Positions 12,736 through 19,350 of a stretch of 64,000 nucleotides of DNA are shown here, one piece after another. The DNA comes from an uncultured Actinomycetes bacterium (GTDB lineage Bacteria > Actinomycetota > UBA4738 > HRBIN12): contig CAVOYV010000001.1 of assembly GCA_963700855.1 (NCBI GenBank), positions 853,881 to 917,880 of the forward strand. The letters run 5' to 3'. Numbering within the stretch: position 1 is the first letter of the stretch; each line of letters starts with the position of its first letter. The notes beneath the pieces are model-generated. The model was given only the letters and a program-made list of their open reading frames with translations. It was not told where the DNA came from and did not search any database. The translations under genes and the position numbers were made by a program.

Positions 12736-12757
12736 ACACTAGCAGATGGGACCGACA
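12736..12757 (-). promoter_or_regulatory. TGTCGG-N10-TAGTGT promoter (PafBC/RecA-NDp-type) upstream of pyrG
   Basis: Minus strand reads TGTCGG tcccatctgc TAGTGT, then 8 nt to the GTG. Confidence 0.65.
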
Positions 12758-12815
12758 CGGACGGTGTTTCGGGTCGCGAGTTCGCCGCTCGGACGAGGAA
12801 TCTCGGTCCGGGCCC

Positions 12816-14453
12816 TCAGGACCTGGCGCGGGCAGCCTCGGCGAGCAGCTCCTCGGCGTGAGAGACCGCGTGCTCCGATCGCTCCAGTCCGGCGAGCATC
12901 CGCGACAGCTCGCGGATCCGCTCGTCGTCGTCGAGCACCTCGACCGTGGCCCGGCCGTCGTCCTTGCGTACCCGAACATGGCGGTCGGCGAAGCACGCGA
13001 TCTGCGGCAGATGGGTCACGACGAGCACCTGACGGGTGTCCGCAAGCCGCGCGAGCCGCCGACCGACGGCGAGACCGGCCTCTCCCCCGATCCCCGCATC
13101 CACCTCGTCGAACACGAGCGTCGGCACGTCGTCGAGGTCGGCGAGGACGCTCCGGCACGCGAGCATCACCCGCGACAGTTCGCCGCCGCTCGCAGCCTTC
13201 GCGAGCGGGAGCCACGGTTGCCCGGTGCCCGGGCGCAGCCCGAGCTCCACGCGCTCCACCCCCGACGGACCGGGAGGGTTCTCGACGAGCATCACCTCGA
13301 TCTCGGCGGAGGGCATCCCCAGTTCCGACAGCTCCCTGGTGAGGCTTGCGGCCAGGAGCGGGGCGGCCTTCGCCCTGCCGGCGGTGACCACCGAGGAGCG
13401 CTCGGCGAAGGCCGCTCTCGAGCTCGACCACCTCGTGCTCGAGACCCGCAAGTCGCTCGTCGGCGCCTTCGAGGGTCGCGAGGCGCTCGCGGGCCTCCCC
13501 GAGGAACACGATGACCTCGGCGTCGGTAGCGCCATACTTGCGCTGCAGGCCTTTCAGGGCCGCGATCCGTTGGCGAACCTCCTCGAGCCGCTCCGGGTCG
13601 ACCGCCAGCCTCTCGCGATAGTCGCGGACGTCGCGAGCGAGCTCTGCGGCGTCGGTCGCGAGCGTCTGCCCGCGGGTCGCGAGCTCGGCGAGCGAAGGGT
13701 CGAGGCTCTCCCCGGCCCGCAAGGCGCTCGATGCGTCGGACAGGGAGTCGGCCGCTCCCCCTCGCCGCCGACCGCCGTCTCGACCGCACCTGCCAGCTCG
13801 AGCAGCCGTTCGACGTGTCCGAGCCGGGTCTCCTCCGCCGTCAGCGCCTCCGTGTCACCCTCGACCGGGCCGACCGACTCGATCTCTCGCACCTGATACG
13901 CGAGGAGGTCGGCTTCACGCTCGCGTTCGCGCATCGCCTCACTGAGCTCCCGCAGGACCTCACGAGCGTGGGCGAGCTGCTCCCACGTGGATCGCATCGC
14001 CTCCACCGCGGCGTGATGCCTGCTCCCGGCAGCTCGGTCGAGGAACGCCGTCTGGGTCGCGGCGTCGAGCAGACGCAGCGCGTGGTGCTGACCGTGGATC
14101 TCGAGCAGTCTGCCCCCGAGAACCGACAGGGCGGACGCGGTCGTGAGCTGACCTCCGATCCTGGCGCCGCCGCGACCGTCGGCACCGACCGAGCGCGCCA
14201 GCAGCACCTCGCCGTCCTCGGCCCACCCGTCGTCCGCGTCGGGGGCGTCGAAGCGGGCCTGGACCCTGGCCGACGTGGCACCCGAGCGGACCAGCTGGGC
14301 GCTGGCGCGCGACCCGCTCACCAGGGCCAGCCCAACGGTCACCATCGTCTTGCCCGCGCCGGTCTCACCGGTCAGGACGTTGAGACCCGGGTGCAGCTCG
14401 AGATCGAGGTCGTCGATCACGCCGAGGCCGCTGATGTGCAGCTGGTGGAGCAC
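12816..14453 (-). CDS. recN: DNA repair protein RecN; two apparent indels near 13760 and 13415
   Basis: Walker [16 protein letters not shown], signature [11 protein letters not shown], Walker [20 protein letters not shown]. Spread over ORFs 13554..14453, 12739..13722 and 12816..13535. Confidence 0.94.
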
Positions 14454-14459
14454 GGGCGC

Positions 14460-14481
14460 ATCCTAGCCGGAGGGACCGACA
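14460..14481 (-). promoter_or_regulatory. TGTCGG-N10-TAGGAT promoter (PafBC/RecA-NDp-type) for leaderless recN
   Basis: Minus strand reads TGTCGG tccctccggc TAGGAT gcgccc GTG. The TAG is also the nadK stop codon. Confidence 0.72.
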
Positions 14482-15326
14482 TCTCCGGCATCGGGCGGAT
14501 CGTCGTCGGCGTCCGGGTCGCCCGGCAGGCCGAACTTCTCCCGTACGCGGGGCAGGAACGCGGATCCGTCGTCACGGCGGACGAACCTCGCGGGGCGGTT
14601 CGACGCACGGATCCGCACCCTCGTCCCGACCGGCACCTCGACCGTCTCGCGCCCGTCCGCCGACAGCAGCGCAGGCTCCTCCCCCACCACCTCCAACGTC
14701 ACCACCTGGTCCGCGGCGAGCACGAACGACCGATCGAACACCATGTGCGCCGCGATCGGCGTCACCACCAGGCAGGGCACGGTGGGCGACACGATCGGGC
14801 CCCGCGCCGAGAACGAGTACGCCGTCGACCCGGTCGGGGTCGCCACGATCACGCCGTCGGCGGAGAACGTGGTCACGTAGGCCCCGTCGACCTCGACCCG
14901 GAGGCGGACGAGCCGCTGACGGGCGAGCTTCTCGACCATGATCTCGTTCATGCCCCACTGGGGCGGGAACGCGCCGTCCACCTCGGTCTCGCCGACCACG
15001 GCGAGCCGCTCCTCGATCCGGGCCCGTCCCTCGAGGGCGTCGCGGATCAGCGGGAGCGCGTCCGCCGGCTCCACCTCGGTCAGGAACCCCAGCCGCCCGA
15101 CCTTCACACCCAAGACGGGCGCTCGCACCCGCGAGGCGACGAACGCGGCCCGAAGGAACGTCCCGTCGCCACCCACGGCCACGACGAGGTCGACCGGGAT
15201 CGAGGCGTCGTCGGGCGTCAGACGGACCGTGTTCACGCCGTCGTCGCGGAGTCGGCGGGCGAGTTCGTCCCCGGCCCGCACGGCCGCCTCCCGTCGTTCG
15301 TGGACGAGGAATCCGACGACACTCAC
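14463..15326 (-). CDS. nadK: NAD kinase
   Basis: GGDGT, GRLGFL, MNE, ADGVIVATPTGSTAYSFSARGP. Confidence 0.96.
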   Translation of the reverse strand: MSVVGFLVHERREAAVRAGDELARRLRDDGVNTVRLTPDDASIPVDLVVAVGGDGTFLRAAFVASRVRAPVLGVKVGRLGFLTEVEPADALPLIRDALEGRARIEERLAVVGETEVDGAFPPQWGMNEIMVEKLARQRLVRLRVEVDGAYVTTFSADGVIVATPTGSTAYSFSARGPIVSPTVPCLVVTPIAAHMVFDRSFVLAADQVVTLEVVGEEPALLSADGRETVEVPVGTRVRIRASNRPARFVRRDDGSAFLPRVREKFGLPGDPDADDDPPDAGDVGPSG

Positions 15327-17773: not shown

Positions 17774-18939
17774 GCATCGCTCCGTTCTCCGGGCTCGTCT
17801 ACGACCCCGCGATCGCCGGCCCCCTCGACCGGCTCACGGCGCCGCCGTACGACGTTATCAGCGAGTCCCGCAGACGTTCCTACCTGGACGCGAGCGCGCA
17901 CAACATCGTGCACCTGGACCTCGCCGAAGGGAACGACGACCCCGAGGCTCCCGACAACCGCTACGTCGGCGCCGCCGAGCTACTCCACGGGTGGACCCGC
18001 AGGGGCGTCCTGCGCAGGACCCCTCCGGCGTACTTCGCCTACGAGTTGTCCTTCGAGCTCGACGGCGCCGAGCGGCGGATCCGCGGCGTCTTCTGTGCCA
18101 TGGACCTCGAGCCCTGGGGCGACAGGGTCTTGCCGCACGAACACGTGATGCCCGGACCGATCGAGGACCGACTGTGCCTGCTGCGGGCGACCGCCACCCA
18201 CCTGTCCGCGATCTACGGCACGATCGCGGGCCCTTGCGAGCCCCTGCACGACCTCCTCCGCCGCACCGCGCAGGCTCCTGCCCACTACCAGGTCCGCGAC
18301 AGCGAGGGGGTCACCCACCGGATGTGGTCGGTTGACGGCGATACCCCGATCGACGGCTGGGTGGCCGACGAGCCTCTCCTGATCGCCGACGGCCACCACC
18401 GGTACACCACGGCCATCGCCTACCGCGACGAGCGTCACGCCGCCGATGGCCCCGGCCCCTGGGATCGGATCCTCACGCTGCTCGTGGATGCTGGCAGTCA
18501 GACCGTCCCCGTCCTGCCGTACCATCGCGTGCAGCTCGAGGGGGAGGCTCCGGCCGACGGGGACCCCGTCACGGATCTCGCCGATGCCCTCGCCGCGGTC
18601 GACGACGCCACCGGGGTCTTCGCCACCGTGGTGGCCGGGCGTGACGGTCTCCCCGAGTACCGGCTGCACCGACTCGAGGGGGGGCCGCCCGTCGTCCGGA
18701 CGCTTCATGACGAGATCCTCGACCGCACGGCACCCGGTGGCGCCTTGCGGTTCACTCACGACGCTGAAGACGCCGACGAGATGGTCCGCACCGGCCAGGC
18801 CGTGGCTGCCTACCTGCTGCCCGCAACTCACCCCGATCGGATCATGGCCGCGGTGGCGCTCGGCGACCGACTGCCCCGCAAATCGACGTTCTTCTGGCCG
18901 AAGCCGCGCACGGGCATGATCATGATGCCGCTCGACTGA
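17767..18939 (+). CDS. DUF1015 family protein
   Basis: APPYDVIS, PHEHV, LIADGHHRYTTA, LPRKSTFFWPKPRTG. Confidence 0.9.
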   Translation: MPRIAPFSGLVYDPAIAGPLDRLTAPPYDVISESRRRSYLDASAHNIVHLDLAEGNDDPEAPDNRYVGAAELLHGWTRRGVLRRTPPAYFAYELSFELDGAERRIRGVFCAMDLEPWGDRVLPHEHVMPGPIEDRLCLLRATATHLSAIYGTIAGPCEPLHDLLRRTAQAPAHYQVRDSEGVTHRMWSVDGDTPIDGWVADEPLLIADGHHRYTTAIAYRDERHAADGPGPWDRILTLLVDAGSQTVPVLPYHRVQLEGEAPADGDPVTDLADALAAVDDATGVFATVVAGRDGLPEYRLHRLEGGPPVVRTLHDEILDRTAPGGALRFTHDAEDADEMVRTGQAVAAYLLPATHPDRIMAAVALGDRLPRKSTFFWPKPRTGMIMMPLD

Positions 18940-18945
18940 ACGCCG

Positions 18946-19263
18946 TCACTCCTCCACCGGCGCTTGGAGCTTCTTGATCCCCGTCGCGACCACCTCGGTG
19001 AGGCTCCGCGCTCCGGCCCCGCTCCGGTAGAAGCGGCGGACCAGCTGCCCGTGCACGAGCACGGGATCGCCCTTCACGATCCCGTCGAGCGCACCAGAGC
19101 CGACGGTGGCGTGCCACGCCGCGACCGGGAGGGGAAGCAGGCGCCTGCCCACCTCCGGAACGGACACGCGCAGCTCGGTGACCTCGTCGCCCGACGGCAT
19201 CCGGCGTTGTACCGGCTCGGCGGCGACGGTGCCCGCGAGAACGACGACATTGACCGTGACCAT
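18946..19263 (-). CDS. short single-stranded DNA-binding (OB-fold) protein lacking the acidic C-terminal tail
   Basis: NVVVLAGTVAAEP, KGDPVLVHGQLVRRFY, TEVVA. 105 aa, ending in QAPVEE. Confidence 0.8.
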   Translation of the reverse strand: MVTVNVVVLAGTVAAEPVQRRMPSGDEVTELRVSVPEVGRRLLPLPVAAWHATVGSGALDGIVKGDPVLVHGQLVRRFYRSGAGARSLTEVVATGIKKLQAPVEE

Positions 19264-19328
19264 AGATCCACCACTTCCTGCGGCGTCTCGCGATCGCCGC
19301 GTCTCGCGGGGGAGGTCAGCTCGCTACG

Positions 19329-19350
19329 AGGGTACCGACGACCGCCGACA
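19329..19350 (-). promoter_or_regulatory. TGTCGG-N10-TACCCT promoter (PafBC/RecA-NDp-type) upstream of the short ssb
   Basis: Minus strand reads TGTCGG cggtcgtcgg TACCCT, about 65 nt above the ATG, in the divergent intergenic region. Confidence 0.7.

Follow-up and report, generated by a model that had tools for sequence, protein, structure and literature searches.

Does an uncultured lineage of Actinomycetota control DNA repair genes through PafBC, as mycobacteria do? The question is raised by a 64-kb stretch of DNA, hereafter the window (C1:853881-917880 of the genome assembly G000, which comprises 2.52 Mb in 8 contigs, has 70% G+C and is rated 82% complete). A first-pass annotation of the window had recorded three exact copies of the motif TGTCGG-N10-TAnnnT just above the start codons of recN, of pyrG and of a short gene of the single-stranded DNA-binding protein (SSB) family, and had read them as a PafBC-type DNA-damage regulon in a deep lineage. 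The published consensus of PafBC promoters, tGTCgg(N10)tA(N3)T, includes a -26 element (PMC8635444). In the published model, single-stranded DNA (ssDNA) binds the WYL domains, PafBC is placed between domain 4 of sigma-A and the -26 element, and RNA polymerase carrying SigA uses -10 promoters without a -35 element (PMC8635444, PMC11804915). We propose that the three sites are very probably hybrid promoters of this class, also called RecA-NDp promoters, in which a SigA -10 element (TAnnnT) is combined with a TGTCGG at -26 that replaces the -35 element.

Motif sites in the window and across the genome

The three exact matches lie where the first-pass annotation had put them (Table 1), against a chance expectation of 0.10 for the window, and three sites were not attained in any of 100 shuffles that preserved dinucleotide composition. 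All are on the minus strand, the sense strand for each of the genes that they precede, and for recN and pyrG the proximity to a start codon is as had been described: 6 nt separate the recN site (TGTCGGTCCCTCCGGCTAGGAT) from GTG-CTC-CAC-CAG, and 8 nt separate the pyrG site (TGTCGGTCCCATCTGCTAGTGT) from GTG-GTG-AGG-GAG-CAC-ACG-AAG-TTC-ATC-TTC-GTC-ACG-GGT-GGT. The description does not hold for the SSB-like gene, whose ATG is located 65 nt downstream behind a Shine-Dalgarno sequence. Since the recN GTG is only 6 nt past the -10 element, a transcript starting about 7 nt below this element would begin at the start codon and be leaderless.

Across the genome, the exact motif with a 10-nt spacer was found 18 times. 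The chance background was judged by varying the spacing from 0 to 30 nt, which gave 0-5 sites for each of the other spacings (mean ~1.3), and by permuting the hexamer; TGTCGG ranked first among the 60 arrangements of its letters, the other 59 yielding a median of 1 and a maximum of 4 sites. About 16-17 of the 18 sites therefore exceed background. Column counts over the 12 nt upstream of the aligned sites revealed only a weak c-c/g-a/g signal before TGTCGG and no conserved TTGACA-like -35 hexamer. A plausible start codon follows 6-65 nt after 16 of the sites and, as GTG or ATG, 6-8 nt after 11 of them, a geometry that fits leaderless transcripts. No convincing gene could be assigned downstream of the remaining two, at C5:172019 and, close to the end of a contig, at C1:288.

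Exact sites precede uvrB, uvrA, recN and radA as well as genes for an Lhr-like DEAD helicase, a PD-(D/E)XK nuclease, a YraN/UPF0102 nuclease-like protein, a dGTPase-like HD protein, a ComF-like protein, a DUF6504 protein and the short SSB, which together form the repair and nucleic-acid part of the set; the other targets are pyrG, a Crp-like regulator, a cyclase and a Phd-type antitoxin. With 18 sites at the 10-nt spacing compared to ~1.3 at others, and with uvrA, uvrB, recN and radA among the targets, the motif is strongly enriched and lies at repair genes. The first-pass annotation had predicted further hits at uvrB, recA, adnAB and ruvC, of which uvrB has an exact site, recA and an AdnA/B-like gene have variants only, and ruvC has a LexA box alone. 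One-mismatch variants are themselves enriched at this spacing (TGTCAG, 3 sites vs a background of 0.2; CGTCGG, 10 vs 4.6). TGTCAG is found at recA, at the gene for RmuC and at that for a LysM protein divergent from lexA, TGTCAT at the gene for a 962-aa UvrD-helicase and PD-(D/E)XK protein (AdnA/B-like), and CGTCGG at genes for two UvrD-like helicases, an MrfA-like helicase, Ku and HolB. A CGTCGG variant in the window, upstream of a putative metK (Table 1), may belong weakly to the regulon or may have arisen by chance. Olivencia 2017 makes no mention of recN, pyrG or ssb.

The PafB-PafC regulator

A PafBC-like WYL regulator, which the first-pass annotation had expected, is encoded 36 kb to the left of the window by adjacent pafB and pafC genes, each a full-length match to, and far nearer, its own Mycobacterium smegmatis counterpart than the other (Table 1). 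The locus follows the mycobacterial arrangement around the Pup-proteasome genes, in the order arc/mpa, dop, pup (with a GGQ end), prcB, prcA, pafA, an open reading frame (ORF) on the opposite strand, pafB, pafC, two small ORFs, tatA, tatC and, further on, helY. PafA, Dop and Pup exceed the NCBIfam equivalog cut-offs; NCBIfam contains no model that matches PafB or PafC, and the N-terminal helix-turn-helix (HTH) domain of PafB has no Pfam match at E<=0.01, being visible only in the alignment to M. smegmatis PafB. The opposite-strand ORF between pafA and pafB (G000 C1:815890-816582, minus strand, equivalent to L003:7891-8583) encodes 230 aa without a Pfam match, and its presence suggests that pafABC is probably not a single operon here, unlike in mycobacteria.

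The residues on which the mycobacterial mechanism depends are retained in both proteins. Arginines R46 and R50 of PafB, which read the GTC triplet (PMC8635444), have equivalents in the stretch akRkfeRdk (aligned with fsRmfeRdk in M. smegmatis). The ssDNA-binding arginines R208, R211 and R214 of PafB and R201 and R204 of PafC (PMC11804915) are likewise kept, in iRafRlsR (aligned with tRtfRlsR) and vyRadR (aligned with lfRfdR), respectively, as is the WYL tyrosine Y196 of PafB. A PafC-type HTH domain was present in each of the 26 relatives searched.

These data bear on whether the motif could be read by a different regulator, for instance an activator of the DriD or SiwR kind, which is a WYL homodimer, or an alternative sigma factor, with PafBC employed otherwise. 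Elsewhere among bacteria, WYL activators other than PafBC do govern damage regulons (PMC9186387, PMC10693628), the 82% complete assembly could lack a regulator, and binding of PafBC to the motif is something that we infer. However, the only two WYL domains detected in the genome are those of pafB and pafC, the PafB arginines that read GTC are kept, and the motif is the same as the PafBC consensus and lacks palindromic symmetry, which is what a heterodimer would lead one to expect. Its 3′ half is moreover a standard SigA -10 element at a fixed distance of 10 nt, a misfit with promoters of the extracytoplasmic function (ECF) type. We consider another regulator very unlikely.

Conservation of the recN and SSB-like promoters

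The recN promoter is written into the end of the preceding gene, which we take to be nadK, encoding NAD kinase, from its sequence and from the mycobacterial gene order tlyA-nadK-recN-pyrG rather than from a profile search. Its reading frame closes with GAT-GTC-GGT-CCC-TCC-GGC-TAG (D-V-G-P-S-G-stop), as had been pointed out, so that TGTCGG falls within GAT-GTC-GGT and the TAG stop supplies the first half of the -10 element TAGGAT. In every one of the 15 genomes of the same genus the box is found at this position, 6-7 nt ahead of the GTG. It was also recorded in L004-L007, L023, L078, L145 and L147: among the four closest species representatives it reads TGTCGG in L004 and L005, CGTCGG in L006 and TGTCGT in L007, in two other families of the order it reads TGTCAC, and farther out it reads CGTCGG in a metagenome-assembled genome (MAG) of the Gaiellaceae, TGTCGG in Kibdelosporangium and TGTCAG in a MAG labelled Bifidobacterium breve that groups with Ilumatobacteraceae in the PyrG tree. 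The GTC triplet is retained at orthologous recN promoters while the bases around it drift; the box was not present in one family, f5 (L148, L149).

In this assembly, the recN coding sequence itself is broken. The frame runs in -1, then in -3 for ~118 codons and then again in -1. The two frameshifts, located near 13759 and 13404, compensate each other, and an in-frame stop occupies 13554-13556; recN is intact in relatives (550-567 aa). An Lhr-like helicase gene (G000 C1 ~533909-537290) is likewise divided, into ORFs of 296 and 882 aa. These breaks may reflect indel errors in the assembly or genuine decay.

The 105-aa SSB-like protein has an SSB-family OB-fold, lacks a C-terminal tail and scores under the NCBIfam ssb cut-offs. 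It is a paralogue found in every sampled genome of the order (homologues in L084-L103 and L151-L163), and a sample of 201 genomes of the phylum gave only weak matches (E >= 1e-13) outside the order. TGTCnn-N10-TAnnnT stands upstream of 32 of the 33 homologues across the order, and because it is kept while its spacer and flanking sequence change and its distance from the ATG ranges over 20-167 nt, we regard it as a clear phylogenetic footprint.

A constitutive pyrG promoter with a variable -26 box

At pyrG, conservation is divided between the two halves of the promoter. The extended -10 element (cTGcTAnnnT) and the leaderless GTG are kept in all 28 relatives, and the -26 position varies. A strict pattern scan of 80 PyrG loci had returned no pyrG box in relatives; partial conservation was revealed by anchoring on the -10 element. 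The exact TGTCGG occurs in this genome, L118 and L122, which represent three different families and differ in their spacers; CGTCGG is found in L114 and L115, CGTCGC or CGTCGT in L105, L106 and L119, TGTCAC in L006, and an unrelated hexamer in the remaining 19. The promoter reads as a constitutive one in which a PafBC box has repeatedly been present and lost. The invariant extended -10 element would support basal expression independent of PafBC, to which the -26 box would add induction by damage in this species.

The pyrG site alone could alternatively be a chance or recent TGTCGG above a constitutive extended -10 element, with pyrG not regulated by damage. This view draws on the hexamer being unrelated in most genomes of the same genus while the extended -10 element and leaderless GTG are invariant, on the ~1.3 chance sites expected per genome, and on pyrG being a metabolic gene. 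Set against it are the exact TGTCGG at the same position in three families, each time with a different spacer, the CGTCGG and TGTCAC at this position in others (L114, L115 and L006, respectively), and the exact site at a second gene of the nucleotide pool, that of the dGTPase-like HD protein. The chance of a TGTCGG at one fixed position is moreover ~4e-4 (2204 such hexamers on 5.05 Mb, both strands counted). We therefore hold a chance origin to be possible though doubtful, and judge the pyrG box to be probably functional in this genome, with less certainty than the recN and SSB-like boxes.

Relation to the LexA-dependent SOS response

Since the genome encodes lexA, with an SOS box upstream of it, the three genes might instead be under LexA control, with TGTCGG irrelevant. 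SOS boxes were searched as TCGAAC-N4-GTTCGA with up to one mismatch, and good boxes occur at lexA, recA, ruvC, the DUF6504 gene and one uvrD-like gene. However, within this tolerance the promoter regions of recN, pyrG and the SSB-like gene contain none, the sole match near the three sites (C1:867678, window position 13798) being within the recN coding sequence. LexA control of the window sites was accordingly rejected; we consider it extremely improbable.

Elsewhere the two systems meet. At recA, an SOS box lies upstream of the TGTCAG site, and at the DUF6504 gene and one uvrD-like gene it lies directly past a PafBC-type -10 element, the DUF6504 promoter combining an exact motif with a perfect LexA box (TCGAACATACGTTCGA). 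The LysM gene divergent from lexA, which is ChiZ-like, has a box of the TGTCAG type. The ruvC promoter (G000 C8:31860-31910) has a -10 element, TAGACT, with an SOS box (TCGAACATCTGTTCGC, plus strand) immediately after it, and has no -26 box, and ruvC therefore appears to be controlled by LexA only in this genome.

Table 1 Coordinates of the promoters and genes discussed. Positions are those of the window unless a contig of assembly G000 (C1, C5, C8) is given.
Feature	Position	Strand	Description
recN promoter	14460..14481	-	TGTCGG 14476-14481 (-26); 10-nt spacer; -10 TAGGAT 14460-14465; overlaps last codons and stop of nadK
pyrG promoter	12736..12757	-	TGTCGG 12752-12757; spacer; extended -10 TGc-TAGTGT 12736-12744 (-10 TAGTGT); recN-pyrG intergenic region
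SSB-like promoter	19329..19350	-	TGTCGG 19345-19350; spacer; -10 TACCCT 19329-19334; 65-nt leader with Shine-Dalgarno sequence
nadK	14463..15326	-	NAD kinase (presumed); 3′ end holds the recN promoter
recN coding region	12816..14453	-	GTG start at 14453; frame broken
pyrG	11078..12727	-	CTP synthase, 549 aa; GTG start at 12727, 8 nt past the -10 element
Short SSB-like gene	18946..19263	-	SSB-family OB-fold protein, 105 aa, no C-terminal tail; Pfam SSB E 3.3e-8; ATG at 19263
pafB	C1:816607-817569		WYL and WCX; M. smegmatis PafB (7P5X, 9FND) E 1.7e-34, PafC E 7.6e-5
pafC	C1:817610-818515		HTH_PafC, WYL and WCX; M. smegmatis PafC E 1.3e-41, PafB E 1.5e-6
Composite or damage promoters	C1:700601-700649; C5:257315-257354; C8:73593-73674; C8:59869-59971		DUF6504; uvrD-like; recA; LysM
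CGTCGG-N10-TAGACT	52037..52058 (C1:905917)	-	One-mismatch variant, 9 nt before metK start (metK named from its N-terminal sequence only)

Proposed mechanism and points against it

By analogy with mycobacteria, ssDNA arising from DNA damage would bind the WYL domains of a PafB-PafC heterodimer, which would then place itself between the -26 element and domain 4 of sigma, a mechanism termed sigma adaptation, and allow the housekeeping RNA polymerase to fire. The recN gene would then be transcribed as a leaderless mRNA from its GTG, and the short SSB-like gene with its 65-nt leader. That this lineage has the same PafBC-type circuit, as the first-pass annotation had proposed, is well supported by the motif and its spacing, the gene set, the conservation in relatives and a pafB-pafC pair with its key residues, and we hold it to be highly likely.

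Several points weigh against this proposal. Binding of PafBC at the sites, induction by damage and the positions of transcription starts are inferred, about one chance site is expected per genome, and at pyrG the GTC is correctly placed in only 9 of the 28 relatives, with the box not in most genomes of the same genus. For ruvC, a target of PafBC in mycobacteria, a LexA box alone was seen in this genome. Non-actinobacterial control genomes are matched by the Pfam HTH_PafC model as well, making a domain match alone unspecific. Finally, the M. smegmatis motif was not found in Streptomyces venezuelae despite its PafBC homologues (PMC9380542), which means that the presence of PafBC alone does not guarantee use of the motif.

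The order-wide conservation of its box suggests, speculatively, that the tail-less SSB is a core component of the damage regulon particular to this lineage. Since free ssDNA is what activates PafBC, a damage-induced SSB that lacks the C-terminal tip by which other proteins are recruited could, by covering ssDNA, feed back on the signal, or it could shield gaps without recruiting repair partners, and gain and loss of the pyrG -26 box may tune nucleotide supply to damage from species to species. We think this scenario unlikely as it stands and offer it as a conjecture.

Lineage and significance

The nearest PyrG sequences among 598 relatives found (76-82% identity) belong to Actinomycetota MAGs, the next being at most 67% identical. 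In a FastTree phylogeny of PyrG, the clade of the window is apart from Acidimicrobiia, Actinomycetes and Nitriliruptorales, in agreement with a deep lineage as the first-pass annotation had it, although it emerges from an unresolved fork of a single-gene tree and the placement is accordingly weak. Two MAG contigs in this tree, L030 (Bifidobacterium breve) and L014 (Bifidobacterium sp.), group with Ilumatobacteraceae (Acidimicrobiia), and their labels look wrong. Elsewhere in the window, a complete 16S-23S-5S rRNA operon (21168-26181, minus strand) explains a dip in G+C at 20-28 kb, and an FMN riboswitch is located at 44392-44521 (minus strand).

RecA-NDp promoters reach beyond mycobacteria to other Actinobacteria (PMC8223512; Streptomyces PMC5087735), and what we describe is a known system recognised in a further lineage, with no new mechanism or kind of system. 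The motif, regulator and regulon logic of PafBC in an uncultured, probably class-level lineage of Actinomycetota support an early origin of this circuit in the phylum, and supply a list of regulon members, ready for use, for organisms that resist cultivation. Modestly new are the order-specific short SSB as a constant member of the regulon and the on/off -26 box at pyrG.

Comparison with known systems

The RecA-NDp promoters of Mycobacterium, for example recA P1, share with those described here the 22-nt bipartite motif, the fixed 10-nt spacing, the lack of a conserved -35 element and a frequent leaderless geometry. Their targets are also alike (uvrA, uvrB, recA, adnAB-like, uvrD and lhr), and composite PafBC-plus-LexA promoters occur at some genes in both, as does a site at the LysM gene beside lexA; the dual control of some genes and the damage-type promoter next to lexA reported for mycobacteria (PMC8223512) are thus paralleled here. 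Unlike in Mycobacterium, ruvC is without a box in this genome, and the regulon, known here from sequence, appears to include the short SSB particular to this lineage and, in certain species, pyrG.

With regard to the regulator, M. smegmatis PafB and PafC (7P5X, 9FND) are likewise encoded side by side, both with WYL and WCX domains, and located between pafA and tatA/tatC/helY, whereas in the present genome an ORF on the opposite strand separates pafA from pafB. Arthrobacter aurescens has a fused PafBC (6SJ9). DriD of Caulobacter crescentus and other homodimeric WYL activators resemble PafBC in sensing ssDNA and in governing a damage regulon independent of SOS. However, regulators of the DriD type act as homodimers on palindromic sites upstream of the promoter, whereas here a non-palindromic site at -26 is accompanied by a PafB/PafC pair.

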